From: a bacterium | GTDB taxonomy: Bacteria; Hydrothermota; 32-111 | Assembly (NCBI GenBank): GCA_046484245.1 | Contig: JAWOBN010000073.1 | Location: 19,465-83,464 of the forward strand | Direction of reading: 5' to 3' | Length of the DNA: 64,000 nt | Shown here: one piece after another, positions 20,009 to 35,581 of the stretch | How positions within the stretch are numbered: the first letter of the stretch is position 1 | Layout: each line of letters starts with the position of its first letter | Position numbers and translations under genes: made by a program | The notes under the pieces: model-generated | Seen by the model: the letters and a program-made list of their open reading frames with translations, nothing else | Told to the model about the DNA's origin: nothing | Database searches by the model: none

Positions 20009-21308
20009 ATACCGGCTCATACTGCTGATACTGATTACAGCTGTAAGCCCCCTGCTTCCCGTTCGGGGTATGACAGAGGGTATGTTCATTATTGCATTTC
20101 TACTGCTCATTCTCATTGTGTCACGGCACCTGCTGGGCAATCATTCACTGTTCATTGTTATTATGCTTCTATACGGCATATTCTCCCGCCTTATATTCTA
20201 CAGTGCAGGGGGTATGCAGTACAATCCCGTATTCCTCCTTCCTGATATATATATAATTATGTATATAGATGAATTGATTCATGCGCTGAAGGATATGAAT
20301 AGATACAAGAGGGCGGGCCTTCTGGCATTTATAATACTATCTGCAGTTTACTCCACATTGCTCAGTCCCGGAGATATTATTGTTCAGGCGATTTCACTGA
20401 ATATACTGATAATACCCCTGCTGTTCTTTCTGATAGTAGGCAGTGTCAAGAAAATTATTGACATAATGGAGATAATGGCGCCATTTATAATCGGATACGC
20501 AGTACTGCACTTTGCAGGCATACTGCCTGTATTTGATGCTTACTGGATTGATGTGAATCATATGAATACATTTGACTCAATTAAAGTGGGTGGTATTATG
20601 CGGCCCCTTGCATCATTTACATCTGTTGAAGAACTCGGCATATTTCTCATGCTGCTGATGGTAATCCCCTTTTACAGAAGGACAAAATATACTCTTATAA
20701 TGGGAATAACCGCATTATCAATGCTGCTCATATTCTCCATACGCATGCCCTTGATGATTTTTTTGGCTTTCGTGGTTTTATTCCTCATAAGCAGGCGGCA
20801 GTATAAGATTCTCGGTGTCACAGTACTTATAATTACAGGAATATCAATAATGGTCAGCCGTTCTGATATAATGAAACCCATTCATTCCAGTGAAACGGGT
20901 ATGGATGTTATTGTAAGACATACACTGGAGCCATTTGGCAATATATTCTCATCCTATTCCCTGGAGAAGAGGATTGTAACAGCACACAGGAATATTGAGA
21001 TAATAATGGAAAATCCCGCGGGCCTGGGTTTCAATGCAAACCCGAGGATTATGGAACATAAGAAAAATATACACGAAGCTGAAAGCAGTTTCATCCAGCT
21101 TGTATTGGGAGGCGGCATACCAATGCTGATATTCCTTGCAGGCGTATATATTGTATCCGGGATAAGTATCTTGAGAAGCAGATTCGGATTAAAAAGCGGT
21201 CTGCTTTTTATCTCTCTTCTCCTTATAATGTTCACGCATGCACTATCCCTTCATTTTATAGGTCCGCTGGTATATCTTTGTATAATAAGGGGGAATTATT
21301 TTGAATAG
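19968..21308 (+). CDS. Polytopic membrane protein, O-antigen polymerase/ligase (Wzy/WaaL)-like
   Basis: 446 aa with about 10-12 TM helices and a larger loop near the C-terminal third. Assigned from its position within the polysaccharide locus. Confidence 0.4.
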   Translation: MTHMHSGIFLTENRYRLILLILITAVSPLLPVRGMTEGMFIIAFLLLILIVSRHLLGNHSLFIVIMLLYGIFSRLIFYSAGGMQYNPVFLLPDIYIIMYIDELIHALKDMNRYKRAGLLAFIILSAVYSTLLSPGDIIVQAISLNILIIPLLFFLIVGSVKKIIDIMEIMAPFIIGYAVLHFAGILPVFDAYWIDVNHMNTFDSIKVGGIMRPLASFTSVEELGIFLMLLMVIPFYRRTKYTLIMGITALSMLLIFSIRMPLMIFLAFVVLFLISRRQYKILGVTVLIITGISIMVSRSDIMKPIHSSETGMDVIVRHTLEPFGNIFSSYSLEKRIVTAHRNIEIIMENPAGLGFNANPRIMEHKKNIHEAESSFIQLVLGGGIPMLIFLAGVYIVSGISILRSRFGLKSGLLFISLLLIMFTHALSLHFIGPLVYLCIIRGNYFE

Positions 21309-22578
21309 ACCAATGGAAATACTGGAGAGACAGAGACAGGCAACTGCACGGAGTATTGAATATACCGACAATTTGATTCAACCGAGCAGTCAGCTGAAAA
21401 TATTCCAATATTCATTATTATGGACAGTTTACAGAACAATCACTGATGAGGACTACAGGTTCAGGCCGAAAATGTCCAGACCGGCAATACTTTTCAGCGG
21501 GCAGTTGCCGCCTGACAGGTATTATCTGCATTCAGGCAATATCCCCGGGAGTATTATTGAAGCATTTGAAAAGAACCATATTCACGGTATGGACCTGAGA
21601 CTGACGGGAATGGGAATTGGTTATATTATTTCCGGAGCCCTTAAATTCCCCCGTTCATTCAAGTATAAAAATATCTATCAGATAAAAGACAGTATAGAGA
21701 CAGAGCGCAGTATCAGAGACCTTATCAATTCAAATATTGTTGATATTGAGAGATTCTCATCAGTATTGGACAAATTGTTCTGTGAGAAAAAACCCCTCTT
21801 CATACTGCTTGACCAGGACAGGACAAAATTCAGACGGATTATTGCAATGAAGGCGCATCAGCATTCAATTCCTGTCTATGTGATTCAGCACGGGATGACA
21901 CCTGCCTGCACTGACAACAGTATCCCGTTTGCAAATGAATCATTCTTTCCCATTCACTGTGACAAAATCTTCACCTGGGGCAGACATGCTGCTCAATACC
22001 TGATAGAGGGCGGGGTAAATCCCGAAAATATCATTGAGGCGGGCAATCCGTATATACCCGATATTGATGACAGTATCCGCCCTTCAGGGGAACTGCTTGT
22101 TATTGACCAGCAGTTTGAGGGCCAGGAGGAGGAGAGAGAATTCTCATACAGAAAGCTCACGGATGCTCTGGAGTCATCAGGCAGAGAATACAGCATATAT
22201 CTGCGCAATGATTATAACCGGGAGTTCCTTACGAAGATAGCAGGCAAGGGAAGAGTGCTTTCATGGTCAAAGGACAGTGCAGCAGCAAATATGCTGAAGC
22301 ACTGTATCACACTGGGGTTTTACTCATCTGCATTAATAGAATCCATTGCTCTTAACAGACCTGCTGTTGCATGCGACTTTATGGGCAGAGGCAATGTAAT
22401 GGGATTTGAGGGCAGGGGACTGTTCTATGCAGACAGCAGTGATTTTGAAAGGAGTATAGAGCAGGCGCTGGAAATATCAGGAAGAGCAGATCTCAGCCGG
22501 ACACTGCAGAGATTCTGTACCAGAAGAGGTCCGGATGCGGGGAGATTCATTGCACGGAGTATCATGGAGATGTTATGA
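21301..22578 (+). CDS. Uncharacterised polysaccharide-biosynthesis protein (possible GT-B-like or capsule-biosynthesis fold)
   Basis: 425-aa soluble protein embedded between Wzy-like and GT4 genes, with start and stop overlaps on both sides. I recognised no clear motif. Confidence 0.45.
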   Translation: MNRPMEILERQRQATARSIEYTDNLIQPSSQLKIFQYSLLWTVYRTITDEDYRFRPKMSRPAILFSGQLPPDRYYLHSGNIPGSIIEAFEKNHIHGMDLRLTGMGIGYIISGALKFPRSFKYKNIYQIKDSIETERSIRDLINSNIVDIERFSSVLDKLFCEKKPLFILLDQDRTKFRRIIAMKAHQHSIPVYVIQHGMTPACTDNSIPFANESFFPIHCDKIFTWGRHAAQYLIEGGVNPENIIEAGNPYIPDIDDSIRPSGELLVIDQQFEGQEEEREFSYRKLTDALESSGREYSIYLRNDYNREFLTKIAGKGRVLSWSKDSAAANMLKHCITLGFYSSALIESIALNRPAVACDFMGRGNVMGFEGRGLFYADSSDFERSIEQALEISGRADLSRTLQRFCTRRGPDAGRFIARSIMEML

Positions 22579-23612
22579 ATATAACATTCATTGACCTTTC
22601 CGTGCACAGAGGCGGAGCAGAGCTGTCACTGGAGAGTCTTGCGCATGCACTGGAAAAAAAACATAATATTACAATTATTGCTCCCCGGGGGACCCGGATC
22701 AATGCTGACACCGGATTCATACTGCTGAGAGGCAGCAGGTGTTTTACTCAATCCAAGAGAGGCGCACGCGCACTGCTTGCAGGATTAAAAATACTAATGC
22801 TCGGCATGACATCCAAGTGCCGTAATCTGATCATAAGCAATACATTCAAGGCTCACATAATGGGAGCAGGCATGAAGCTGACAGGCAGGGCTGAACACTG
22901 GATTATTATTGAGAGGGATGTGCCGGAGAATATCATCATACGGTTGATCAAACGGATACTGCATTATGCTGCAGACAGCACTGTTTTTATATCAGAATTT
23001 CTGAGAAAACAGTATGGCAAAAGTGATGGTATTGTTATCGGCAATATTGTAGAATCCGTAGAGTGCAGTAAAGAGTACCGCAGCCCGTACAGGCTTCTCT
23101 TTGCCGGGGATCTCACCTATCAGAAGGGGCTGGACAGGGCAATTGAGGTATTTGACGAATTGAGAAAGACAGACAGACGGTTTGAACTGACAGTAGCGGG
23201 CGCATCTGTCTCATATTCCGGGCAATCGCCTGTAAAAATAAAAAGAGGTATTCATTATGAGGGTTATACGGATAGGTCCCGACTTTACTCCAATGCAGGT
23301 TTTATCATTCTGCTCAACAGGAAAACAGAGAGCTTCTCCAGGGTTGTTTTTGAGGCAATGAAATGCGGCATTGTCCCTGTGATTTTGAAGGGCAATGGTA
23401 TGGATGACTATACAACTGATAATGTCAATGCACTCAAGTTCACCGGGTATCTGCCTGATGAAATAAGCCGGCGGATTATCAGCACAATTGAATCCGGTGA
23501 TTATGAGAAGATGAGGAATAATCTGGGGCATGCATTTGAGTACAGAGAGGGTGTTCATGTGAAAGAACAATGGCTGGAATTGATTGAACAATTCAGTACC
23601 GGGCAAACTTGA
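22575..23612 (+). CDS. Glycosyltransferase family 4
   Basis: The C-terminal ESFSRVVFEAMKCGIVPVI matches the GT4 E-x7-E region. Length 345 aa. Confidence 0.65.
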   Translation: MNITFIDLSVHRGGAELSLESLAHALEKKHNITIIAPRGTRINADTGFILLRGSRCFTQSKRGARALLAGLKILMLGMTSKCRNLIISNTFKAHIMGAGMKLTGRAEHWIIIERDVPENIIIRLIKRILHYAADSTVFISEFLRKQYGKSDGIVIGNIVESVECSKEYRSPYRLLFAGDLTYQKGLDRAIEVFDELRKTDRRFELTVAGASVSYSGQSPVKIKRGIHYEGYTDRSRLYSNAGFIILLNRKTESFSRVVFEAMKCGIVPVILKGNGMDDYTTDNVNALKFTGYLPDEISRRIISTIESGDYEKMRNNLGHAFEYREGVHVKEQWLELIEQFSTGQT

Positions 23613-23655
23613 CAAAAACATATTAATTGATACTCTTAAATAAAAAGGAGGATAC

Positions 23656-24123
23656 ATGAAGAGATTCACTTTACCGGCAATTGTAGTACTCATTATTGCA
23701 GGTTGCACTTTACTCAATTTCCTTCCCTCAGGTGAACTGACATTTGATAAATTCTACGACTTGGACAATGGGGTGCAGATTGACCCTAATGGTGATAATC
23801 TCAGTGACGCTGACCTGATACTTGAGCCATGGTATAAAGACGGCGAACCTGCACCTGCTCTGCAGCTCTACAGCTGGGGCGACAATGCCACATTCATTCA
23901 TGATCTCGGCGAGATATCACTGGACAAGGCGCTGAGTATGTCAGACAGTGAGATTGAACCTGACAGTATTGAGTGGGATGTATATGTTAACCAGTCACAT
24001 ACCTACTATATTGTAACATCCGAGATGAATGAATTTTTCCTCTATGTCTCTGATGTGGAGATTCAGGAGGATGAAACCACATACGAAGCCACAGTAAAAT
24101 TCAATTATCAGCAGAGAAATTAA
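23656..24123 (+). CDS. Hypothetical lipoprotein
   Basis: Signal peptide with lipobox (LIIAGC); AGGAGG ribosome-binding site upstream; 155-aa acidic protein. Confidence 0.55.
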   Translation: MKRFTLPAIVVLIIAGCTLLNFLPSGELTFDKFYDLDNGVQIDPNGDNLSDADLILEPWYKDGEPAPALQLYSWGDNATFIHDLGEISLDKALSMSDSEIEPDSIEWDVYVNQSHTYYIVTSEMNEFFLYVSDVEIQEDETTYEATVKFNYQQRN

Positions 24124-24127
24124 CAGA

Positions 24128-24147
24128 GGGCGGCCTGCCGCCCTTTT
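24128..24147 (+). terminator. Rho-independent terminator (GGGCGGCctGCCGCCC + TTTT)
   Basis: A GC hairpin at 24128-24143 followed by TTTT, immediately after the lipoprotein stop. Confidence 0.55.
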
Positions 24148-24941
24148 CATTTAATTGCTTTCATGGAAAACATCAGGGGTATCTTCTTCTTAAAACCCGG
24201 TATATGCCAGTATCCGTCTTTATTCTGTTTCATGAACTGAGTTGTTTTATAGAATGTATGGTCAAATTCATTGAAAAACTCTACTCTAAGACAGGCTGTT
24301 GATGCAGCATTGATGATGTCCGAAACAGACCATATCCACTCATACGAAGGATATGAGAGTTTTCTGTCCTCAGCTGAATAATCCGCATTATCATCCCATT
24401 TTACCGGATTTTCATTGTGGAAATAATCCATTGATATTCTGACTGATGCATCCTCTTCATCAATAGTCATCAGCACGGGATGCGTATCCCTCACATAGAC
24501 AAATCCCCCCGGTTTCAGTAGTGATCCAAGGTCCCTGAACAATCCGTATAGATCACTGTTCCAGCATAATACTCCCCGGCTTAAATATACTATATCAAAA
24601 GTGCTGTCAATAACTTCCGTTAGCTCACTGTTATCTGACACAATAAATTTGCTATTGCTGTTTGTTTTTACAGCAAGTTCTCTTGCAATATCTATTGATT
24701 TCTCGGAAAAATCCGTTCCTGTAACATGAGCACCTTCATATGCAAGTGAAATGGAATCTGTTCCAATATGGCATTGGATATGAAGAAGTGCTTTATCCCT
24801 GATATCACCGAGTTCATTTTTTTCATTCTCTTTTATGATGCTTTTGCCTGACAGCACTGTTTTGATCTCATCATATGAGTTTCTGTGAATTTCAGCCATC
24901 TCATCCCACATCTCTCTATTGTTTCTGATAAAATCATTCAT
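24147..24941 (-). CDS. Class I SAM-dependent methyltransferase
   Basis: Motif I (HIQCHIGTDSISLAYEGAHVTGTDFSEKSIDIAR) and a post-I acidic residue identify the Rossmann-fold methyltransferase family. Length 264 aa. Confidence 0.7.
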   Translation of the reverse strand: MNDFIRNNREMWDEMAEIHRNSYDEIKTVLSGKSIIKENEKNELGDIRDKALLHIQCHIGTDSISLAYEGAHVTGTDFSEKSIDIARELAVKTNSNSKFIVSDNSELTEVIDSTFDIVYLSRGVLCWNSDLYGLFRDLGSLLKPGGFVYVRDTHPVLMTIDEEDASVRISMDYFHNENPVKWDDNADYSAEDRKLSYPSYEWIWSVSDIINAASTACLRVEFFNEFDHTFYKTTQFMKQNKDGYWHIPGFKKKIPLMFSMKAIK

Positions 24942-25104: not shown

Positions 25105-25144
25105 CCAAATCCCGGGGACGACCCTTGCAATTCATGCAAATTGC
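25105..25144 (+). repeat. Intergenic repeat copy 1 (core CCAAATCCCGGGGACGACCCTTGCAA)
   Basis: Near-exact reverse complement of copy 4 at 25699-25740, which reads ...CAAGGGTCGTCCCCGGGATTTGG. Confidence 0.8.
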
Positions 25145-25355
25145 GGTTCTTCTCCAAAATAGTTGGCTGATTCATCCGGAAACACTTATTATTCATTAAA
25201 TTAAGCAGTATTACAAATCGCAAGTACTATATGTACTCTCATAATTTTTCTTTAGCTTCTTAATTATACAGAACGATCATGATTATGCATGACCAGCCCG
25301 CATCTTAAATCTAATTTCAACATCTGTCCTTTTGTCCCATATTTTGTAAAAACAC

Positions 25356-25396
25356 CCTCCAAATCCCAGGGACGTCCCTTTATATCTGCAACTTCT
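25356..25396 (+). repeat. Intergenic repeat copy 2 (CCTCCAAATCCCAGGGACGTCCCTTTAT)
   Basis: Same core as copy 1 with one A/G difference. It forms an inverted pair with copy 3, about 125 bp away. Confidence 0.8.
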
Positions 25397-25480
25397 ATGT
25401 TAAATTATTACTCAACTTATGATTCGCTGTTTTCTAATTAAAGTTATTGTATAACTTACAATTACTTAATTTTGTAAATT

Positions 25481-25522
25481 CTTGCAATTGTAAAGGAACG
25501 TCCCCGGGATTTGGGCAAAATG
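25481..25522 (-). repeat. Intergenic repeat copy 3, inverted orientation (TTGCAATTGTAAAGGAACGTCCCCGGGATTTGGGC)
   Basis: Reverse complement of the core seen in copies 1, 2 and 5. Confidence 0.8.
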
Positions 25523-25698
25523 TTATGTAATTTTATAAATAACTGGTTTTAGGGTGTGTTTTCAGCCGTTTTACAGTTTATTCTCTAATATTTCACGCTT
25601 TGTTCATTGAGAAGTCATCTTTCTTGTATTCTGTATCTCTTTTTACCAACTCTTTTGGAGAAGAACCTTAACAATGTAAGTTAATAATAGCAGAACTA

Positions 25699-25767
25699 AA
25701 ATTGCATGAATTACAAGGGTCGTCCCCGGGATTTGGCAGGTAGTTTTGACCAAAAAAGGGTAAAAGG
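25699..25767 (-). repeat. Intergenic repeat copy 4, inverted, with an extended roughly 50-nt block (…GTCCCCGGGATTTGGCAGGTAGTTTTGACCAAAAAAGGGTAAAAGG)
   Basis: Core plus a downstream block shared with copy 6 at 35355-35420. Ends about 75 bp upstream of the ORF starting at 25841. Confidence 0.8.
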
Positions 25768-25840
25768 ACAAATGTGAAAATAGACTTGTGATGCATTGAC
25801 TACTCTGCTGTATTGATTAAAATAATGGAAAAGAGGATAT

Positions 25841-27037
25841 ATGATAATACCGTTGTGTATCAGGGATACTGTTGAGAGGATCCCTCTATTTTCAATAATA
25901 ATAATCTTAATGATCATATTTGTGTTCTGGCAATATCCTGCATTGAGATATATACCCTGGATTGAACATGAATTCATTCAGAATCTTGAAACAGAAAAAT
26001 TTATCAAGATAACCGGAATGTCTCATCTGCTCTCCCGAAGCAATGGATTCAATACATCAAATATCCTGCTGTCACTATTCAGCAGTCAGTATATACCTCA
26101 ATTCATTCTGAATCTATGGCTTGCCGCTGTTCTGCTTCCATTTATTGAAAACCGCACAGGCAGGGTTCCTTTTGTATTACTCTATATGTTTTTCTTCATG
26201 ATTGTATATGCAGTTGCGCGGACAGGCCTTTATTACAATGATTACCCTTTTCCCTTCAATCAGGGTATTTTACTGCTTTTTACAGGGTATTTCTATTCAA
26301 TGTATTTCTCCATGAAAATAAGGGTATTGTATTTCCTGGGTCCATTGAAATCACTTAAGGGTATAGTCGATTATCCTGCATCTGCTGTTATACTGCCACT
26401 CTATTTTGTTGTTCAGATCATAATTATAAGCATAGTAATGTTACGCAGGGATATACTTTTCCTTCCTACAGCCGGAATGCTGGTCAATATGTTATTTTGT
26501 CCTGTAATAGGTGCAATGACAGGATATATCATAAAGCGTATTCCCACTGTTAAGGTCATTGATAAATATCTAAGAAGACCGGATTCCTATCTCACTGCTG
26601 TAGATGAGAAAGAACAGGAGAATATTGAACTGTTGATTAATGGTGATAAAGAACAGAAAAAAACTGCCCTGAATAGCCTGGAAAGCAGTTTCATATCTAA
26701 ACCGGATACCAATATATTGAGTACATTATTTGAATATCACTGTAAGAAAGGCAATAAAGAGCATGCATTGAAATTGATCAGGTATTTCCTCAGTAAACCG
26801 GATAGTGATGATATATCAGAGCTCAGTGATATTATCAGCATCATTGAAAAGAATGCGGGCATTGATTTCATAAACAGCTTGGATGTAAAAAGCAGGATCA
26901 AAATCATCAAGGCATATTATCTGCTAAACAGATACGAGGAGGCACGGCAGCTCATGAGGTATCAGGAGGATAGTGAAAACAGTAAATCATATCAGTCATT
27001 AGTGAAGTTTTTTGAAAAGGAATATTTTATATGGTGA
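25841..27037 (+). CDS. Polytopic membrane protein with a C-terminal TPR-like soluble domain (hypothetical)
   Basis: 398 aa: about 7 N-terminal TM helices, then a soluble region with TPR-like helical pairs (KIIKAYYLLNRYEEARQLMRY). Confidence 0.5.
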   Translation: MIIPLCIRDTVERIPLFSIIIILMIIFVFWQYPALRYIPWIEHEFIQNLETEKFIKITGMSHLLSRSNGFNTSNILLSLFSSQYIPQFILNLWLAAVLLPFIENRTGRVPFVLLYMFFFMIVYAVARTGLYYNDYPFPFNQGILLLFTGYFYSMYFSMKIRVLYFLGPLKSLKGIVDYPASAVILPLYFVVQIIIISIVMLRRDILFLPTAGMLVNMLFCPVIGAMTGYIIKRIPTVKVIDKYLRRPDSYLTAVDEKEQENIELLINGDKEQKKTALNSLESSFISKPDTNILSTLFEYHCKKGNKEHALKLIRYFLSKPDSDDISELSDIISIIEKNAGIDFINSLDVKSRIKIIKAYYLLNRYEEARQLMRYQEDSENSKSYQSLVKFFEKEYFIW

Positions 27038-27171
27038 CATATCATTGCAGTTGTAACAATTTGTCATAATCCTCTATTTATAAACCTTATTATAATACAG
27101 CTTATGAAAGGCATTGATTTTGCAAGGGTAAATGGTGTTGAACTTTAAATCATAAAGGATATATTTAATAT

Positions 27172-27852
27172 ATGACTGGAACATTAATAAATGCAGGAGC
27201 TGTAATAGCCGGCTCAATCATAGGACTTCTATTGAACAGAAGATTGCCTGAGAAAATAACAAAGGCTGTATTTATACCAATAGGTCTCTTTACAATTTTT
27301 CTCGGTATCAAGATGACAATCAATACACCGAATATATTAATACTTGTTTTATCTGCTGTGAGCGGTACTTTGATAGGTGTCCTTATCAATCTCAATCATG
27401 CAATTGACAGCATTGGAGAGAAATTGAAGCAACTGTTAAAGGCAACAAATAAACATTTTACAGAGGGGCTTGTAACTGCTTTCCTCATTTTCTGCATGGG
27501 TTCACTGACAGTTCTCGGTGCATTTGAGGAGGGGACAGGCAATTTCCCCGATATACTGCTGACCAAATCCATAATGGACGGCTTTACCTCAGTAATACTT
27601 GCTGCTTCAATGGGCATTGGTGTAATGCTCTCTGCAATCCCCCTGCTTATATATCAGGGACTTCTCACCTTGTTTGCGGGTTCACTCACCGGTCTTATTA
27701 CTCCTGATACTGTCAGTCAGATATCAGGTGCAGGCGGCCTGATGCTTCTGGGACTCGGTATTGAGATACTGGAAATTAAAAAACTGAATATTGTCAATAT
27801 GCTGCCCTCACTTATTATTGCAGGGGTTCTGGCATATTTCTTTGTGGGGTGA
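27172..27852 (+). CDS. DUF554 (YqgA-like) family membrane protein
   Basis: The N-terminus MTGTLINAGAVIAGSIIGLLLNRRLPEKI and overall 226-aa six-TM layout match the DUF554 family. Confidence 0.65.
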   Translation: MTGTLINAGAVIAGSIIGLLLNRRLPEKITKAVFIPIGLFTIFLGIKMTINTPNILILVLSAVSGTLIGVLINLNHAIDSIGEKLKQLLKATNKHFTEGLVTAFLIFCMGSLTVLGAFEEGTGNFPDILLTKSIMDGFTSVILAASMGIGVMLSAIPLLIYQGLLTLFAGSLTGLITPDTVSQISGAGGLMLLGLGIEILEIKKLNIVNMLPSLIIAGVLAYFFVG

Positions 27853-28532
27853 TTATGAAAAAAATGATATTACTGATGCTTATCATTATTTCAACAGCAG
27901 TGCACTCACTGGAAATAACTTCATATGAGATACCTGATTACAGTAATGATCTGCCGCTTGACAGTTTCACTGACATGGCAATAGACGGAAGTACAGGGAA
28001 TCTATGCCTTACAGGACCGGGGGTGTGGTGTGAAATACCACTGAAGGGTAATGAGCCTGATTGGGATAGATCTTTTACTGCATCAACAGGGGAGTATCAA
28101 TTGACAGTTGTTGCAGGCAGGAACAATGGTGTGACTGTTTTTGACAGGTATAATTATTCAGTAATGGATGAAGAGAATGTATATGCAGCAGACCACTGGG
28201 GTATTGAACCATCCTGTATGGAATATTCCGGTTATGTTCTGCTTATCGGCAACAAGGAGGGTACTGTGTCCTCATGGGAAATAAGGAGAGGTACAATTGA
28301 GATGATTTCCCATACAGATTGTTCAATAATACTTACAGGCATTGCATCTGCAGTGAATACTGTCTTTCTCTCTGATTCCAATTATATATACAGATGCGAC
28401 AGTGACTACAATATTGAGAAACGGTTTGAGACGGATTTTGCAATAAACGGTATTGCTGCATCTGACAGTGTACTCTGGGCTGTTGGTATGAATGAGAATA
28501 GAATCTACAGGATAGAGGGAGTGTATCAGTGA
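27849..28532 (+). CDS. Secreted hypothetical protein
   Basis: Signal peptide (MKKMILLMLIIISTAVHS), Cys-containing and beta-rich, 227 aa. It overlaps the neighbouring genes at both ends. Confidence 0.5.
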   Translation: MIMKKMILLMLIIISTAVHSLEITSYEIPDYSNDLPLDSFTDMAIDGSTGNLCLTGPGVWCEIPLKGNEPDWDRSFTASTGEYQLTVVAGRNNGVTVFDRYNYSVMDEENVYAADHWGIEPSCMEYSGYVLLIGNKEGTVSSWEIRRGTIEMISHTDCSIILTGIASAVNTVFLSDSNYIYRCDSDYNIEKRFETDFAINGIAASDSVLWAVGMNENRIYRIEGVYQ

Positions 28533-29410
28533 CACATTCTCATGAACACAGTGGAGAAATAAGGAATGTGGGAATTGCATTCATACTTAACTTTGTTTTT
28601 ACAATCATTGAAATTGCCGGGGGGCTATGGACAAATTCAACTGCAGTACTTGCAGACGCATTGCATGATCTGGGTGATTCACTGTCAATAGGCCTTGCAT
28701 TTATAATGGAGAAATTGTCCGGCAGGAGCAGGGATGAGCATTTTTCCTATGGTTACGGCAGATTCTCGCTCCTCTCTGCTTTGATAAACGGCATTGTTCT
28801 GATAAGCGGGTCTGTTATCATACTTGTTCATGCTGTACCGAGAATCATTGATCCGCCTGATGTGAATCCGCAAGGAATGATTCTGCTGGCAGTAATGGGC
28901 ATTATATTCAATGGCATAGGCGTCCTGCTTATGAAGAGAGGCAGTACTGTCAATCAGCAGATGCTTGTGCTTCATCTGCTTGAGGATTTGCTCGGATGGG
29001 CAAGTTTGCTCATTATAAGTATTATCATGGCTATTTGGTATATACCTGTGCTTGATCCGGTATTCTCTGTTATTTATACTCTGGTAATACTTGTTAATGT
29101 CGGCAAATTGCTCTACAAGACAATGAAGCTCTTTCTTCAGGGCATACCTGCTGATGTTGATATTGATACCATAGAGGAGAATATACTCTCACTGGAGGGT
29201 GTTGAGGATGTGCACGATATTCATGTCTGGTCCCTCAATGGCAGGGAGAATATTCTGAGTCTTCATGTAGCTGTCTCGTGTGATGTCAGGAGGCATCAAT
29301 TCCCGGAATTGAAGGACAGTATAAGGCAGATATTGAGTAAGGAATCCATAGATCATTCAACAATTGAGATTGATGTTGAAGATGAGAGCTGCAGTTTCAG
29401 GACATGCTGA
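28529..29410 (+). CDS. Cation diffusion facilitator (CzcD/ZitB-like) metal efflux transporter
   Basis: His-rich N-terminus (MTHSHEHSGE), the TM2 motif ADALHDLGDS, six TM helices and a C-terminal cytoplasmic domain. Confidence 0.85.
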   Translation: MTHSHEHSGEIRNVGIAFILNFVFTIIEIAGGLWTNSTAVLADALHDLGDSLSIGLAFIMEKLSGRSRDEHFSYGYGRFSLLSALINGIVLISGSVIILVHAVPRIIDPPDVNPQGMILLAVMGIIFNGIGVLLMKRGSTVNQQMLVLHLLEDLLGWASLLIISIIMAIWYIPVLDPVFSVIYTLVILVNVGKLLYKTMKLFLQGIPADVDIDTIEENILSLEGVEDVHDIHVWSLNGRENILSLHVAVSCDVRRHQFPELKDSIRQILSKESIDHSTIEIDVEDESCSFRTC

Positions 29411-30831
29411 TGAATAGAATGAACAATATATTCTCTTCAAAGGACCGTAATCTTACTGAGGGCAGTATATGGAAGAATCTCCTCATATTGTCCCTGCCCA
29501 TTATTCTGTCCAATATGTTTCAGACCTTTTATAATATGGCTGATGCATTCTGGCTGGGTAAACTGGGCAAGACAGCACTGGCTGCGCCTACAATTACCTT
29601 CAATGTTGTGTTTACAATAATAGCACTAGCAGGCGGTCTCGCAATGGGAGGTACAACACTTGTCGGTCAGTATAAGGGGGCAAAAGATGAGAAAATGGTC
29701 AACAGGGCTGCAGGCAATACATACAGTATGATTTTTATTATTGCATTGATGCTGGCAGCAATAGGATTTATTTTCTCACCGCAGATACTGCGTTTGCTGC
29801 AGACACCCCATGAGGCATACAGTGACACATTGGTTTATATGCGCATAACCTTCATAGGCATGCCCTTTGTTTTCGGATATTTCATATTCCAGGGCATACT
29901 CCAGGGGTACGGTAATACAATAAGCCCGATGAAACTCAATGCATTCACTGTAATACTCAATGTTGTTCTGGACCCTCTGCTCATATTCGGATGGGGTCCT
30001 TTCCCTGCAATGGGTGTAGCAGGAGCAGGCATCGCCACTGTGTTCTCGCAATTTACAGCATCAATGATAGGAACAATTCATCTCTTCTCCGGCAGATACG
30101 GTGTAAAAATTTCTCTTAAGACAATGATGCCGGACATGGAGATAATCAAGAATATATTAAGAATAGGACTGCCCATATCCCTGGGACAGACAGGCACTTC
30201 TTTCGGTTTCACAATACTTATGGGTATTGTCAATACTCTGGGGACAGCAACAGTCGGTGCTTTCGGGATAGGCAACAGGATAATATCCCTGCTTGTAATG
30301 CCTGCAATGGGACTTGCGAGAGGCAACAGCATAATGGTAGCGCAGAACATCGGTGCGGACAAGGTGAAGAGGGCAGAGAGAACAGTATGGACAAGTGTTG
30401 CAATAAATTCAGTAATCCTCTTTATATTCACGACACTGCTCTTCTTCTTCGGCGGCTATGTTGTCAAATTCTTCATTAATGATCCTGAAGTGATAAAAAT
30501 AGGAACACAGATGTTCAGAATTACGGCTTACTCTGTTCTGTTCTTTTCAATCATGATTGTCTTCAATGGAGCATTTCAGGGTTCAGGTCATACAATGCCT
30601 GTTTTTGTATTGCAATTGGCAAGGTTGTGGTTATTCCGTCTGCCATTTGCATACCTCTTTACAAAGATAATGGATATGGGATATAATGGTATCTTCTGGG
30701 CAATGTTCATATCCAACAGTGTCATTGCTGTTGCATCCTTTATATGGTTTAGCAGAGGAACATGGAAAGAAAGAATTATTCACAAAGAACCTGTTGAAAC
30801 AGAAGACATTATTGTCTCTGTAAGTGATTAA
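29404..30831 (+). CDS. MATE family efflux transporter
   Basis: 475 aa with 12 TM helices. The N-terminal SIWKNLLILSLPIILSNMFQTFYNMADAFWLGKLG is typical of MATE/NorM proteins. Confidence 0.85.
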   Translation: MLMNRMNNIFSSKDRNLTEGSIWKNLLILSLPIILSNMFQTFYNMADAFWLGKLGKTALAAPTITFNVVFTIIALAGGLAMGGTTLVGQYKGAKDEKMVNRAAGNTYSMIFIIALMLAAIGFIFSPQILRLLQTPHEAYSDTLVYMRITFIGMPFVFGYFIFQGILQGYGNTISPMKLNAFTVILNVVLDPLLIFGWGPFPAMGVAGAGIATVFSQFTASMIGTIHLFSGRYGVKISLKTMMPDMEIIKNILRIGLPISLGQTGTSFGFTILMGIVNTLGTATVGAFGIGNRIISLLVMPAMGLARGNSIMVAQNIGADKVKRAERTVWTSVAINSVILFIFTTLLFFFGGYVVKFFINDPEVIKIGTQMFRITAYSVLFFSIMIVFNGAFQGSGHTMPVFVLQLARLWLFRLPFAYLFTKIMDMGYNGIFWAMFISNSVIAVASFIWFSRGTWKERIIHKEPVETEDIIVSVSD

Positions 30832-30841
30832 GGAGAAAAAC

Positions 30842-32938
30842 ATGAAAAGAATACTGCTGATACTGTCTCTTCTAATAATAATTGCAGGATGTGCCAAAAG
30901 AGAAGCAGAGGGTTACAATGCGCCTCAAAGTGAACCGGAAGCTGTAAAAATCAAGACTCAGAGAGCTATTCATGACACTGTTGTGACTGACTATTATAAA
31001 TGGATGGAGGCAAAAGACGAGAGAACAATTGATTATATTGAGAGGGAGAATGCTTACACAAAAGCCCGTACAGAAGATCTGAGGGAATTGAGAGATAGTC
31101 TTTATGATGAAATGCTTTCAAGGATTAAGCAGACAGATCTCTCTGTACCTTACAGAATGGGGGATTATCTCTATTACTCCAAGACCCTGGAGGGTAAACA
31201 GTACAGTATTTACTGCAGAAGAAGATATCCTGACGGTAAGGAGGAAATACTGCTTGACAAAAATACAATGGCAGAGGGCAAGATATATTTTTCTGTCGGA
31301 GTATTTGAGGTCAGTCCCAGCCAGAACCTTATTGCCTATGCAGTTGATACCCTGGGAAATGAGAACTATCATCTCATAATAAAGGACATTAATGCCAATG
31401 AGATTGAAGATACAGGTATAAACAGAATATCATCTGTTGAGTGGTCTGCTTCAGACAGTATGTTCTACTATACTGTTGAGAATAATGCAAGAAGACCGTA
31501 TATTGTCAAAAGGCATATAAGGGGAACGGACCCGGAGGATGACCGGGTGCTTTTCACTGATGACAATGAAAGGTTCTGGGTATGGCTCTCATCATCAAAG
31601 GACAACAGATATGTCTTCTGCGGTTCTTCAAGTAAGATTACATCAATTATGGGTTATATTGAGAAATCCGGTTCAGCTGATTCATTTACTTTTCCATATC
31701 CGAAGAGAGACAGTGTTGAGTATTATATTAAGCATAATAATGGTATCTTTTATATACTGTCAAACAGGAATGCCTATAATTACAGAATTGATGCAGCGCC
31801 TGTCGGTTCTCCACAGGATACAACATGCATTGTACCCGAATCTTCCAATACAACACTGATACGTCTGGAGATGTTCAGTGATTACCTTGTTATCTCTGAG
31901 AGAAGAGACGGTTTCCCTGCATTGCGGGTACTCACCATCGGCAGTAATGATATGCATTATATTGATTTCCCCGATGATGCATATTCGGTCTGGCTTGAGA
32001 ACAACAGGTATTTCCCGTCCGATTCATTACGGTATTCCTATTCATCATATAAAACACCATTCACCATCTTTGATTATAATATGAAGACAAGAGAAAAGAG
32101 AATGATTAAACAGCAGGAGGTCACAGGATATGACCCTGATATTTATGAGACAAAGAGGATTGACATAATTGTGCGTGACGGCGAGAGTGTGCCGCTTACA
32201 ATAATGTACCGGAAGGACATTGACTTGAGAGGAGACAACCCCTTTATCCTTGACGGATATGGTGCATACGGTTCAGCAAGCGACCCGTACTTTTCCTCAT
32301 TGCGTCTCTCCCTTGTCAACAGGGGAGTAATCATAGGAACTGCGCATATAAGAGGCGGGGGTGAAAAGGGAAGACAGTGGTATGAAGCAGGTAAATTGCT
32401 CAATAAGAAGAACACATTCCATGATTTTATTGATATTGCAGAATATATTGTTGACAGCAATTACACATCAACCCGCAAACTCGTTATCAGGGGAGGCAGT
32501 GCAGGCGGACTCCTTATGGGTGCAGTTGTCAATATGAGACCTGAGCTCTTCAGGGGCGCGGTTGCTTCAGTGCCTTTTGTTGATCTCATCAATTCAATGC
32601 TCAATCCGGAACTCCCTCTCACAGTACCAGAATATGAGGAGTGGGGTGATCCTGATGATAAAGAATATTTCAGGTATATGCTCTCATATTCACCCTATGA
32701 CAATGTCAGGTCTCAGGATTATCCCCATATGCTGATAATGGCGGGTATAAATGACAGCCGTGTTGCATACTGGGAAGCCCTTAAATGGACAGCAAAACTC
32801 AGGGACTACAATACCTCGTCAAGCGAAATCCTGCTTAGGATGAATATGGGCAGCGGACACGGGGGGTCATCCGGCAGATATGATTTCTACAGTGATGTTG
32901 CTTTTGAATATGCGTGGATAATAGATCTGCTGAAATAA
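30842..32938 (+). CDS. ptrB: Prolyl oligopeptidase family S9A serine peptidase (oligopeptidase B / protease II-like), lipoprotein
   Basis: AAGGAG ribosome-binding site and ATG at 30842; lipobox LLIIIAGC. The catalytic Ser lies in GGSAGGLLMG, and the C-terminal Asp/His region (GINDSRVAYWEALKW...GSGHGG) completes the triad. Confidence 0.85.
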   Translation: MKRILLILSLLIIIAGCAKREAEGYNAPQSEPEAVKIKTQRAIHDTVVTDYYKWMEAKDERTIDYIERENAYTKARTEDLRELRDSLYDEMLSRIKQTDLSVPYRMGDYLYYSKTLEGKQYSIYCRRRYPDGKEEILLDKNTMAEGKIYFSVGVFEVSPSQNLIAYAVDTLGNENYHLIIKDINANEIEDTGINRISSVEWSASDSMFYYTVENNARRPYIVKRHIRGTDPEDDRVLFTDDNERFWVWLSSSKDNRYVFCGSSSKITSIMGYIEKSGSADSFTFPYPKRDSVEYYIKHNNGIFYILSNRNAYNYRIDAAPVGSPQDTTCIVPESSNTTLIRLEMFSDYLVISERRDGFPALRVLTIGSNDMHYIDFPDDAYSVWLENNRYFPSDSLRYSYSSYKTPFTIFDYNMKTREKRMIKQQEVTGYDPDIYETKRIDIIVRDGESVPLTIMYRKDIDLRGDNPFILDGYGAYGSASDPYFSSLRLSLVNRGVIIGTAHIRGGGEKGRQWYEAGKLLNKKNTFHDFIDIAEYIVDSNYTSTRKLVIRGGSAGGLLMGAVVNMRPELFRGAVASVPFVDLINSMLNPELPLTVPEYEEWGDPDDKEYFRYMLSYSPYDNVRSQDYPHMLIMAGINDSRVAYWEALKWTAKLRDYNTSSSEILLRMNMGSGHGGSSGRYDFYSDVAFEYAWIIDLLK

Positions 32939-32942
32939 AAAA

Positions 32943-32968
32943 AGAGGGGTGCTTGCAAGCACCCCTCT
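32943..32968. terminator. Bidirectional Rho-independent terminator (AGAGGGGTGCTTGCAAGCACCCCTCT)
   Basis: A 12-bp perfect GC-rich stem flanked by an A-run on the + side (a T-run for the minus-strand DUF2188 gene) and TTATAATT downstream. It sits between the convergent ptrB and DUF2188 genes. Confidence 0.8.
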
Positions 32969-32993
32969 TATAATTCATCTGTTCAAAGTATTA

Positions 32994-33212
32994 TTACTTC
33001 TTACACTTGAATTTTTTCTTTCTCATAACAGAGCCGTCTTTTTTATAAGTCACGAGTGTTGCCTCGTGTTTCTCTGCAAGATCCTTTGCAAAGTTTACTG
33101 CCTCTGCTTTCTTGTCAAAGTTCTTCATTGAACGGCCGCGTTTGGATGTTGTAACAATCCATTTTTTGTCATCATCACGATGCGGTTGTACATGATAAGT
33201 TTTTTTAGCCAT
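32994..33212 (-). CDS. DUF2188-like small basic protein
   Basis: 72 aa (MAKKTYHVQPHRDDDKKWIVTTSKRGRSMKNFDKKAEAVNFAKDLAEK...) with DUF2188 layout; AGGAGG ribosome-binding site upstream (minus strand). Confidence 0.6.
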   Translation of the reverse strand: MAKKTYHVQPHRDDDKKWIVTTSKRGRSMKNFDKKAEAVNFAKDLAEKHEATLVTYKKDGSVMRKKKFKCKK

Positions 33213-33376
33213 AAAGCCTCCTTAAAGAATTTATGTTACAGAAAAAATAAATAGTACGATGTTATATATGGTGACACTGATCTCTTCTCCGAAAGTTTTC
33301 CCTTCAATCATATTTTTATTTTACACATAATCAGATATTTTTCAACCACTAATTTGAGTAATATGACAAAACATCA

Positions 33377-34873
33377 TTATTCAATTAAAGTGAGTTTCTC
33401 ACAAAATCCACTTTGCGCATCATTGATAAAATAGATGCCTGCAGGGAGACTGAGTTCTTTTGTGATGTCTCTTTCTCCTGAGACACTGCCGTCAAATATA
33501 TGAGTCACCTTTCTGCCCTTTATATCATAGAGATTGATATTATAGTAATGATTTGAACTACTTATTGACAGAGAGAGTCTGTTGTCAGTGATAACATTAT
33601 TCATAATGATTTTATTACGGGTGTTTTTGCTCTCATCAATGCCCAGCACACCTGTCTCCCAGAACTCCATTAAGCTCAGTGTATTGGGCACAATGTCAGA
33701 GGGCTGCTGGTTGATTACAAAAGCAATGGTCACAATAGTGGAATCACCGTAATCAAGATCAAAGGGACCGGAAGACACAATGAACCTCTTGTCACCTGCT
33801 CTGGTGGAGTCCTCTGCTGTTCCCGGATATCCGGACGGCTTGTTCCCCCAGTCATTCTGTAATGGGAATGGTTTATATGACTCTTCGGGGTTACTGGGAT
33901 CAAATGTTAAATAGTCATAACCCGCATGCACTTGATACCTCTCTTCGTCTGTTGGCGGGTCTGTAGCAAGTGTCAAATATCTGTAGGATGTCATTCCGAG
34001 TTCACTGAATGGAGCAATATAAAAACTGCCATCATGATACAGATCAACCAATTGCTCAGTAATGGGTGTTTCAAGCATGACAAGAGAGATAATGCGCGGC
34101 TCATGCACCCAGGTTGTCTCTGGCTCCAGCTGGAATTGATATGCAGTATTGAGCTGCATCAGTGTATCTGACGCGCCCATGTAATCAACTGTCATTGTGT
34201 CAATGAATCCAGCCAGATCATTGGTATAGTCGCCAATATCTGCGTCAACAGAAAAGGCATAGTAGCAGTTGTATAAATCTAGGGAATCCTCATTCTCATT
34301 CTTTATCACATGCCTTATGAATACAACATTATTCAGAAGACCTGTTGTCCACTGATATGTCCACTGTTTGACTGTTATTCCCATAGGCAGGGTCTCAGCT
34401 GTAAAATGCTGGCCAGGATCCTTATCCGAGAAGAAGCAATATGTGTCATAACCGGAGAATGTGGAGTCAAACCATACTGTGCTGTCTGCTTTCATTGGCG
34501 GCCAGTCATCAGCTGAATTATACACCCTCTCCAGTTCATTGTCATACTCAGGTGCGTCACTGCCGTCACCGGGGCAGAATTCACTTGAACCTCCACCGGG
34601 TTTATATCCTGTTGAAACGAGTGTATCACAATATACAAAAAATGTATCCATCAGTCCCGCAAACCATATCCCGCTGCCGTAAATATAATTTTCCTCAGGA
34701 TAACCGCTGGGCCAGTAGCCGCCGTCATTACCTGTAGTTACGTCGTGGCCGATTATACCGTAATTTGATACTGTTATATTGAGATTATTGTAATCAGACC
34801 ATATCATATCCCACTTGGCAAAGATACCTGTAAACAGTAAAAGTGCAGAAATAAAAACCAAAATCCTCTTCAT
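33377..34873 (-). CDS. Secreted T9SS cargo protein of unknown function
   Basis: 498 aa with a signal peptide (MKRILVFISALLLFTGIFA). The C-terminal roughly 80 aa (…LYDIKGRKVTHIFDGSVSGERDITKELSLPAGIYFINDAQSGFCEKLTLIE) resembles a Por_Secre_tail sorting domain. AGGAGG ribosome-binding site upstream. Confidence 0.65.
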   Translation of the reverse strand: MKRILVFISALLLFTGIFAKWDMIWSDYNNLNITVSNYGIIGHDVTTGNDGGYWPSGYPEENYIYGSGIWFAGLMDTFFVYCDTLVSTGYKPGGGSSEFCPGDGSDAPEYDNELERVYNSADDWPPMKADSTVWFDSTFSGYDTYCFFSDKDPGQHFTAETLPMGITVKQWTYQWTTGLLNNVVFIRHVIKNENEDSLDLYNCYYAFSVDADIGDYTNDLAGFIDTMTVDYMGASDTLMQLNTAYQFQLEPETTWVHEPRIISLVMLETPITEQLVDLYHDGSFYIAPFSELGMTSYRYLTLATDPPTDEERYQVHAGYDYLTFDPSNPEESYKPFPLQNDWGNKPSGYPGTAEDSTRAGDKRFIVSSGPFDLDYGDSTIVTIAFVINQQPSDIVPNTLSLMEFWETGVLGIDESKNTRNKIIMNNVITDNRLSLSISSSNHYYNINLYDIKGRKVTHIFDGSVSGERDITKELSLPAGIYFINDAQSGFCEKLTLIE

Positions 34874-35225
34874 TTGTCCTCCTTATATTAAATTAATTAT
34901 ACGGATTGATGAAAATTTATCAACATAAAATAACTATATGTAATTCCCCAAAAAAAATGTCCCCTTAAATTACTATTAAAAAATGTCCCTTTTTGAGAAA
35001 AAGGATATCCCATCACCACACAATATATACGGATAATGCACTAAGTATCACAATAAATGGTAGGGGTTCAACAATTTGAACCTGATCCAAATTTCCCGAC
35101 GCATCACGCAAAACGCAGTTCGCACAACGATAATGGACGGAGGGTTAAGATACAAATGGATTCTATGCGAAACTGCACAAAACCCTCTGCAACCTCAGTT
35201 AAAACTTAAATTACATACTATTCTC

Positions 35226-35278
35226 TCCAAATCCCAGGGACAGCCCTTTACATTATTTACGTTTGACAAAATAAACGG
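35226..35278 (+). repeat. Intergenic repeat copy 5 (CTCCAAATCCCAGGGACAGCCCTTTACAT + TTTGACAAAAT)
   Basis: Same core as copies 1 and 2. Reverse complement of the core of copy 6, about 130 bp downstream. Confidence 0.8.
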
Positions 35279-35354
35279 AATATAAATGCTGCAATAAATA
35301 AATTTAGAAAATATGGTATTGTAAGTTCAGAAATAATTAAATATAATTGTAAAC

Positions 35355-35420
35355 GATGTAAAGGGCTGTCCCCGGGATTTGGAGGTTTGTTTTGACAAAA
35401 TGAGGTGAAGAGGCAGATGG
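35355..35420 (-). repeat. Intergenic repeat copy 6, inverted, with extended block (ATGTAAAGGGCTGTCCCCGGGATTTGGAGGTTTGTTTTGACAAAATGAGGTGAAGAGG)
   Basis: Shares about 50 nt with copy 4, including a TTGAC(A/C)AAAA box. Lies about 160 bp upstream of the GGDEF-NTPase-TPR gene. Confidence 0.8.
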
Positions 35421-35581
35421 AAGTATCCGCATATACTGCAAACCGAATGACAGAAAGGTGTAATAAAGTCAAAGAGGCAGGCACGCGATAGCTATCTGTA
35501 TGACTCAGGGGACATTTTATGAGGGTTAATATATTATTAAAATGGTATTGAAATAATTTACTAAATCAATATAATGTATCT

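Follow-up and report, generated by a model that had tools for sequence, protein, structure and literature searches.

Inverted-Repeat Pairs and a Shared Upstream Block in a WOR-3 Bacterium Are Probable Copies of Nested Mobile Elements

The stretch of DNA analyzed here (64 kb, hereafter the window) carries inverted copies of one repeat in two intergenic regions, upstream of the gene starting at 25841 and of the GGDEF gene starting at 35582. Judged by sequence comparison, the TTTGACAAAA block and the inverted pair are copies of mobile elements, and not a control element shared by the two genes. We consider it probable (about 0.72) that the repeats represent lineage-specific, non-autonomous mobile DNA of a WOR-3 bacterium, made up of repeat doublets linked to a transposase of the TIRYT type and of a second, nested miniature element (MITE), designated E.

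The proposed system has two layers. In the first, a doublet of ~170 bp consists of two inverted arms of 33–38 nt (TCCAAATCCCrGGGAC...) around an AT-rich spacer of ~90 nt. Since the same arms bracket Y1/HUH transposase genes in a related metagenome-assembled genome (MAG), the doublet can be interpreted as the gene-less form of a TIRYT-type element. By analogy with proposals made for REPINs and TIR repeats, the Y1 transposase would recognize and cut the arms on single-stranded DNA and would act in trans to copy or move doublets. In the second layer, E carries one doublet together with two flanking blocks (flanks A and B) and would repeatedly insert into the spacers of other doublets. Effects on neighboring genes, such as a read-out promoter or a hairpin in the transcript, would be incidental.

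Repeat Copies in the Window

A search of the window with the core GTCCCyGGGATTTGG, allowing at most one mismatch, returned six copies, numbered 1 to 6 in order: 25105 (−), 25359 (−), 25500 (+), 25722 (+), 35227 (−) and 35368 (+). With up to three mismatches there were nine matches, compared with 0.88 expected from shuffled sequences; a match at 30173, inside a MatE gene, looks like a chance occurrence. The six copies make up three inverted pairs, namely an outer pair (1 and 4), an inner pair enclosed by it (2 and 3) and a separate pair (5 and 6).

The original prediction had recognized the region around copies 5 and 6 as a second locus of the same repeat family and these copies as an inverted pair, and both statements hold. 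The two 36-nt arms (35225–35260 and 35349–35384) are 92% complementary and stand 88 nt apart; which of them is labeled plus or minus hinges on the strand chosen for the reference motif. The inner pair is equivalent, with 90 nt between its arms, and the arms of the outer pair are 38 nt long and 95% complementary. Inward of the outer-pair arms lies a further inverted repeat of 22 nt (25145–25166 and 25646–25667). The features of the second locus are as follows.

35170–35224 (+): flank B remnant; in E-type elements this conserved block precedes the left arm (BLAST with the E copies of the MAG, alignments)
35225–35260 (−): left arm, copy 5, core 35227–35241; pairs with 35349–35384 in a predicted single-stranded DNA hairpin
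35261–35348 (+): AT-rich pair spacer, 88 nt, co-linear with that of 15 other pairs
35261–35272: GTTTGACAAAAT box within the pair spacer
35319–35347: sigma-70-like site TTGTAA-17-TATAAT in the spacer, directed across the right arm (sigma-70 scan)
35349–35384 (+): right arm, copy 6, core 35368–35382 (core search, inverted-repeat analysis, predicted hairpin)
35385–35419 (+): flank A block (AGGTTTGTTTTGACAAAATGAGGTGAAGAGGCAGATG), the shared block of the original prediction; flank A follows 19 arms with right-hand spacer sequence

The extended block that had been described for copies 4 and 6 aligns over 53 nt (25715–25767 with 35361–35413) at 77% identity. As stated earlier, it is directed at the two plus-strand genes, ending 74 nt before the ATG of the 25841 gene and 169 nt before that of the 35582 GGDEF gene. 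The TTTGACAAAAT motif said to follow copy 5 is found at 35261–35272, and both the dyad GGTTCAA-N4-TTGAACC at 35065–35082 and the degenerate half-core at 35088 are present. Small direct repeats had also been reported for 34875–35100; they correspond to AAAATGTCCCyT at 34954 and 34980, and a third, inverted copy lies at 35507, with 0.03 matches expected by chance. Alignment with the related genome indicates that the repeat unit is far larger than the core, possessing asymmetric conserved flanks and lying inside an element of roughly 520 bp.

The Repeat Family in a Related WOR-3 Genome

When one genome per species was scanned with the core pattern, a single MAG, candidate division WOR-3 bacterium MAG71_tar_biofilm (JAXHVG01), had the core on 34 of its contigs, frequently at their ends. 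This MAG (its loci are given below by L numbers) holds about 65 core copies in addition to the six of the window, and the other genomes in the scan gave scattered single core matches only. A scan of a metagenome collection with the same pattern yielded 14 single matches only, all looking like chance, so the family appears to be restricted to this lineage. Syntenic stretches (L003, corresponding to window 21114–24611, 25668–27078 and 27067–29250; L020, corresponding to 32662–34936) are 83–86% identical between the MAG and the window, which places the window in a close relative of the MAG. Many contigs break at these repeats, which helps to explain the short contigs of related WOR-3 MAGs.

The window and the MAG loci together contain 71 core copies, which include 17 inverted pairs of the (−,+) type. 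Core start-to-start spacing is exactly 141 nt in 13 of the 17, among them window pairs 2 + 3 and 5 + 6, and falls within 140–142 nt in 15. On alignment the pairs are co-linear with asymmetric conserved flanks, the order of the unit being flank B (~150 nt), left arm, a ~90-nt spacer with conserved boxes, right arm and flank A (GGAGGGTTGTTTTGACAAAATAAGGGTAAAGGGACAGATGTTGAAAATAGAT...). The shared block of the original prediction corresponds to the initial 35–50 nt of flank A. Stop-free stretches of at least 150 codons cover 83% of the sequence, and yet 70 of the 71 arms lie outside them; the only arm inside such a stretch is the 30173 match in the MatE gene.

The predicted single-stranded DNA fold of a whole pair is one long hairpin (z = −7.9 for copies 5 and 6 and −5.6 for the inner pair), whereas single arms are not palindromic, with predicted folding energies of −1.7 to −2.6 kcal/mol and z values of −1.2 to +1.3 relative to shuffled sequences. 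Compensatory changes occur at 10 of the 27 stem pairs across 16 repeat pairs. Conservation is higher in the arms than in the spacer (majority-base frequencies of 0.83 and 0.69, respectively).

A Y1 Transposase Gene Bracketed by the Same Arms

Several MAG copies of the core adjoin genes for a Y1 transposase. A copy lies directly after the stop codon of such a gene at L013, L025, L028 and L045, and about 60 nt upstream of the ATG at L027. At L053, in the same MAG, and at L052, full-length paralogues of the gene are enclosed on both sides by perfect inverted arms of 37–38 nt beginning with TCCAAATCCCA. The gene-flanking arms are identical to arms of gene-less pairs of the same MAG at 36–37 of 38 nt.

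The gene is about 0.8 kb long and encodes a protein of ~270 aa with the motifs NHFHLL, GHVFQGRF and YIHYNP. Among Pfam profiles, Y1_Tnp matches it at 47 bits, and HTH_38, HTH_23 and HTH_28 match its last 40 residues. Of three proteins compared with NCBIfam, two matched a single model, ‘REP-associated tyrosine transposase’, and the third matched this model much better than any other; its score of 61 bits lies below the equivalog cut-off of 80. The AlphaFold model (pLDDT 90.7) has a helical C-terminal domain, and its top fold match in the PDB is 4ER8, E. coli TnpA-REP bound to a REP hairpin (E = 1.8e-8), with IS608 and ISDra2 TnpA ranking behind. In alignment with TnpA-REP (4ER8), the HUH motif NHFHLL corresponds to HMH, and YIHYNP, with the catalytic Tyr, to the region of Y115. 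Arms of the family are accordingly seen around Y1 + HTH genes in the related genome, with the identity of the encoded protein supported at fold level by a predicted structure.

The MAG possesses at least six paralogous Y1 loci. The 3′ parts of the L028 and L045 genes are 97.1% identical over 239 nt and have different downstream flanks. The L001 copy (P0008) has a lost or degenerate HUH motif, and several other copies have intact motifs. The GGGGWSAS motif is complete in 8 of 70 arms, GGGGAC occurs in 43 of 70, and the L053 and L052 arms lack the motif.

No Y1 transposase gene was detected in the 64-kb window by tblastn with the Y1 proteins or by Pfam, and a Pfam scan of 20 window ORFs, including the neighbors of the repeats, returned housekeeping genes, three ORFs without a match and no recombinase or transposase. 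The link between the window repeats and TIRYTs is for this reason drawn through the related genome.

Element E and Its Insertion into Doublets

Element E measures 481–614 bp, ends on both sides in 22-bp terminal inverted repeats (GGTTCTTCTCCAAAAGAGTTGG) and contains one arm pair. These ends occur in the window at 25145–25166 and 25646–25667 and at 26 further positions in the MAG loci; overall identity among E copies is 62–71%. The features of the first window locus, which contains a copy of E, are the following.

25105–25142 (−): outer pair, left arm (copy 1) of 38 nt, with 95% complementarity to 25699–25736 and 100% identity to MAG L003 3723–3758
25145–25667 (−): element E, a 523-bp TIR-type MITE with 22-bp TIRs at 25145–25166 and 25646–25667, inside the outer-pair spacer
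25314–25358 (−): flank A block of the inner pair (alignment; minus-strand reading)
25359–25391 (−): inner-pair arm, copy 2, within E (core search, inverted-repeat analysis, predicted fold)
25482–25514 (+): inner-pair arm, copy 3, within E (core search, inverted-repeat analysis, predicted fold)
25699–25736 (+): right arm of the outer pair, copy 4; the orthologous arm is MAG L003 3837–3874
25737–25784 (+): flank A block adjoining copy 4 (CAGGTAGTTTTGACCAAAAAAGGGTAAAAGGACAAATGTGAAAATAG), present apart from 10 deleted nt at the orthologous site of the MAG

Filled and empty sites can be compared directly between the two genomes. At L003 5203–5816 a copy of E lies between a gene for a 398-aa protein and a DUF554 gene, and the corresponding empty site is window 27067–27078. 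This insertion is accompanied by an 8-bp target duplication (TAATCCTC), and 8-bp duplications likewise border E at L044 (TAAAGTAT) and L036 (TGATGATA). A 12-bp duplication at L003 was considered and rejected, as comparison with the two other insertions gives 8 bp, the 4 nt that follow being part of a degenerate end of the element. The window copy of E is, conversely, absent from the orthologous MAG pair, which constitutes a second empty site: nothing interrupts the pair at L003 3720–3874, and its two arms match copies 1 and 4 at 100% and 97% identity, respectively. The window E has taken the place of ~50 nt of the outer-pair spacer and has no target duplication. The L003 copy of E matches the flank of this site as well (positions 258–371 with window 25784–25672, 90% identity by BLAST). 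By comparison with the uninterrupted orthologue, window 25105–25736 is an old doublet with E inserted.

The same arrangement recurs elsewhere: about 15 of the 26 E ends in the MAG lie 10–100 nt inward of an outer arm. At L036, removal of E and its duplication restores the 141-nt spacing of the outer pair, from which it follows that E entered the spacer of a pre-existing pair. These alignments establish, at the level of sequence, that E is mobile and that it is nested inside pairs. In view of the 22-bp TIRs and 8-bp duplications, E is presumably moved by a different transposase, of the DDE type. Its 8-bp duplication and GGTTCTTCTCC... ends recall ISL3-type elements. No autonomous insertion sequence with matching ends was found in the window or the MAG loci examined, and the window copy of E (25145–25667) contains no ORF of at least 80 aa. 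The conserved GGACAGATG of flank A was also considered as the start of a small ORF and rejected, since the ATG is replaced by CCCG in several copies.

The second window locus belongs to the same element. Window 35170–35419 aligns to E copies over that stretch only, comprising the flank B remnant, the pair and flank A (in BLAST of the MAG E copies against the window, E of L044, positions 135–384, matches window 35419–35170 at 69% identity). On these matches it is an internal fragment of E that has lost both ends. The MAG orthologue of this intergenic region lacks the inverted pair and has a different E fragment and a solo arm instead, suggesting that these intergenic regions are hot spots of repeat turnover. 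Together, the natural empty and filled sites and the nested MITE insertions offer a system for studying the interplay of hairpin repeats and MITEs.

A more ambitious reading, which we regard as unlikely, is that the two layers are interlocked: doublets maintained by the TIRYT would serve as landing pads for the doublet-carrying, DDE-type MITE, and would in addition have been co-opted for regulation. Nesting would then be self-reinforcing, since each MITE insertion brings a new doublet as a landing pad, and doublets may be preferred as harmless sites. They may also persist at orthologous sites, the arms being 97–100% identical, compared with ~83% in neighboring genes. Finally, the transposase HTH domain and the boxes of the spacer or flank A could have been co-opted, turning gene-adjacent doublets into regulated read-out promoters.

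Another reading, which is quite unlikely in our estimate, treats the pairs as passengers, that is, inert relics of a dead Y1 element that were captured once by E and have been spread recently by its DDE-type transposase. E-type flanks A and B on 15 of the 17 pairs, the clear target duplications and presence/absence of E between genomes and the L001 Y1 copy without an HUH motif are all compatible with it, and much of the family copy number could be due to transposition of E and not to the Y1 enzyme, as most doublets seen sit inside E. A clean presence/absence case of a doublet alone was not found between the two genomes. However, some pairs have flanks unrelated to those of E (the outer pairs of L036, L008 and the window, and the pair at L003 3720–3874). 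Inert passengers are also difficult to reconcile with arms that are better conserved than the spacer and with compensatory changes in the stem, and at least two Y1 copies, 97% identical, appear to be recent duplicates in differing flanks, with several motifs intact.

The Shared Upstream Block

The original prediction regarded the block common to copies 4 and 6 as a cis-regulatory module or a repeat-borne promoter. What remains of this proposal is that the block is borne by the repeat; its restriction to two genes was lost in the search of the related MAG, where flank A is present on 19 further arms.

In its regulatory form, the proposal holds that a TCCCnGGGA palindrome acts as operator next to a TTGACA −35 element, so that one regulator would govern the 25841 and GGDEF genes. 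This is very improbable, even though the block lies upstream of both genes and is directed at them, and the arm and flank A upstream of 25841 have been kept at the orthologous site, where the two species are ~84% identical. The HTH domain of the transposase family could also bind the arms, and co-option of RAYT DNA binding for regulation has been speculated upon (PMC3337134). Nevertheless, the block is flanking sequence of an element that occurs in many copies, and the orientation of the block relative to genes is random: among 17 pairs, flank A is co-directional with the neighboring gene (at its 5′ end) in seven, convergent (at its 3′ end) in six and not assignable in four. The sigma-70 scan found no −10 hexamer 16–18 nt downstream of either TTGAC box, and the TTGACA boxes were therefore rejected as −35 elements, contrary to the original prediction. 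Better promoter-like sites lie nearer each ATG, at 25796–25823 for the 25841 gene (10 of 12 matches) and at 35548–35575 for the 35582 gene (11 of 12), and both are conserved in the MAG orthologues; upstream of the MAG GGDEF gene the proximal site is retained although the pair is absent. The spacer site TTGTAA-17-TATAAT (35319–35347) could act as an incidental outward promoter and is kept as a candidate. The block shared by the two genes appears to be transposon-borne and provides no evidence of co-regulation, so that a false lead can be removed.

Still less probable is an inverton, in which a site-specific recombinase would flip the ~90-nt spacer and switch transcription between the neighboring genes. 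The architecture is suggestive, with inverted repeats of 33–38 nt around a short AT-rich segment that contains the sigma-70-like site at 35319–35347 and with pairs in divergent intergenic regions, and contig breaks at the repeats could mean mixed orientations in the population. In the assembled consensus sequences, however, 34 arms can be classified, and flank A always adjoins the right spacer end (19 arms) and flank B the left (15 arms), with no mixed case. The outer pair and its orthologue are oriented alike in the two species, the 20 scanned ORFs, including the neighbors, contain no recombinase, and the same arms bracket the ~0.8-kb transposase gene in place of a promoter.

A structured non-coding RNA gene or leader, suggested by the strong predicted hairpin, the covarying stem and the conserved flanks, can be practically dismissed, as an Rfam scan of the window gave one tRNA above threshold and nothing else, the long near-perfect stems, target duplications, nesting and transposase link are signatures of DNA elements, and orientation relative to genes is random.

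Comparison with Known Systems

The mobile elements proposed here represent biology of a known type, and their value lies mainly in annotation and comparison. The nearest described relatives are TIRtrons, in which long terminal inverted repeats, rather than palindromic REPs, border the RAYT-like genes (TIRYTs; Di Nocera et al. 2013, PMC3733652). For some TIRYTs, the TIRs also make up dispersed repeat families with a dimeric arrangement, and GGGGWSAS is a motif common to the majority, with exceptions; the biochemistry of TIRYT action on TIR repeats was named as future work (PMC3733652). Most TIRYTs belong to TnpA-Y1 subclass 2.1, with C-terminal Bac_DnaA_C, HTH_23 or HTH_28 domains (Quentin et al. 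2018, PMC6006769). The WOR-3 Y1/HUH transposase resembles them in being RAYT-like, longer than RAYTs and equipped with a C-terminal HTH. Its gene is likewise bracketed by long TIRs whose single arms are not self-palindromic and which are dispersed as a repeat family, often in dimers. Part of the arms hold the start of GGGGWSAS, although the full motif occurs in 8 of 70 only.

Unlike the described TIRYTs, the genes reside in an uncultured WOR-3 host and occur in several paralogous copies, one pair of them 97% identical. The dimers also differ in their very uniform 141-nt spacing and conserved spacer, and most of them travel inside a second, TIR/TSD-type MITE. The system extends to an uncultured phylum the small set of dispersed dimer families formed by TIRYT-flanking repeats.

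REPIN-RAYT systems are known from Pseudomonas and E. coli (Bertels and Rainey 2011, PMC3116915, PMC3337134), the REPIN concept being set out in PMC3337134. The WOR-3 doublets share with REPINs an extragenic inverted arrangement with fixed spacing, a single long predicted hairpin, an IS200-related Y1 transposase flanked by the same repeat, with TnpA-REP as its best structural match, and persistence at an orthologous site across species. In contrast to REPs, which have an imperfect palindromic core, single WOR-3 arms are not palindromes; they lack the GTAG tag, and the spacer is AT-rich and largely unpaired. The transposase is longer (~270 aa plus HTH, compared with ~165 aa) and is not single-copy. 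As the arms are non-palindromic and the transposase is not single-copy, we class the system with TIRYT/TIR repeats rather than with REPINs proper.

Among bacterial MITEs of the TIR type are the Correia/NEMIS elements of Neisseria, and IS1397 is an insertion sequence that targets REPs in BIME/REP loops. E resembles the former in being short, non-coding and intergenic, with TIRs and target duplications, and resembles IS1397 in often landing inside another hairpin-forming repeat. Unlike either, E carries a complete doublet of another element family as cargo.

Conservation of arms and spacers

The arms are the inverted repeats that hold the core GTCCCyGGGATTTGG. At the outer pair, the arm at window positions 25108–25143 is 100% identical between two species (compared with 3723–3758 of the orthologous locus L003), while the coding DNA beside the pair is only ~83% identical between the same two species. 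This suggests that the arms are under selection or that copies have been homogenised with one another.

The AT-rich spacer between paired arms has a conserved element of its own, a ~17-nt motif (rTAAGTnnATAAATAr) present as two direct copies (e.g., window 35288–35335) that occupy columns 66–85 and 105–121 of pair alignment A2. TAAGTT is almost invariant across 16 pairs, and the motif could be a protein-binding site.

One further match to the core was considered and rejected as a family member:
30173–30187, (−) strand, core match with 2 mismatches inside the MatE transporter gene
It is devoid of any family flanks and was taken as a chance match.

Sequences flanking the repeat locus

The intergenic region upstream of the GGDEF gene contains additional short repeats next to the repeat locus:
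34954–34965, (+) strand, AAAATGTCCCyT
34980–34991, (+) strand, AAAATGTCCCyT
35507–35518, (−) strand, AAAATGTCCCyT
35065–35082, dyad GGTTCAA-N4-TTGAACC
35088, degenerate half-core CCAAATTTCCCGAC

All three AAAATGTCCCyT copies of the window are confined to this region (0.03 matches expected by chance); the two direct copies and the inverted one, ~540 nt apart, enclose the repeat locus between them. The orthologous region of the related MAG (L020) has no copy of this motif. The copies could be an operator in their own right, or they could form the termini of a further small insert.

The dyad and the half-core lie within a segment of ~167 nt (34928–35096) lacking a counterpart in L020, in which ...ATAACTAC is joined directly to AATGCAAAACGC... 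at the corresponding site. This window-only segment may be a decayed repeat fragment.

The region's best sigma-70-like site (TTGAAA-16-TATAAT, 35548–35575; 11/12 matches) is retained in the MAG (L020 2627–2655), and the annotated GGDEF start codon (ATG, 35582) follows just 6 nt past its end. Such close spacing implies either a leaderless mRNA or a real start codon downstream of the annotated one. The same layout of TATAAT followed by ATG is also seen at the Y1 transposase genes of loci L053 and L052.

Repeat elements at other loci

In locus L043, ~2 kb flanking one side of a pair (1–2150) contains no ORF of at least 100 aa. Ends of the MITE E are found at 1985, 2442 and 2645, so an array of repeat elements, nested or in tandem, may lie here.

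Locus L001 carries a degenerate Y1 paralogue:
L001 4166–4975, (−) strand, gene of protein P0008
P0008 has lost the HUH motif (IEYQLL in place of NHFHLL of the other copies), and its GHVFQGRF and YIHYNP motifs are also changed. The gene still has an arm on one side and a complete pair on the other; this copy is probably inactive.
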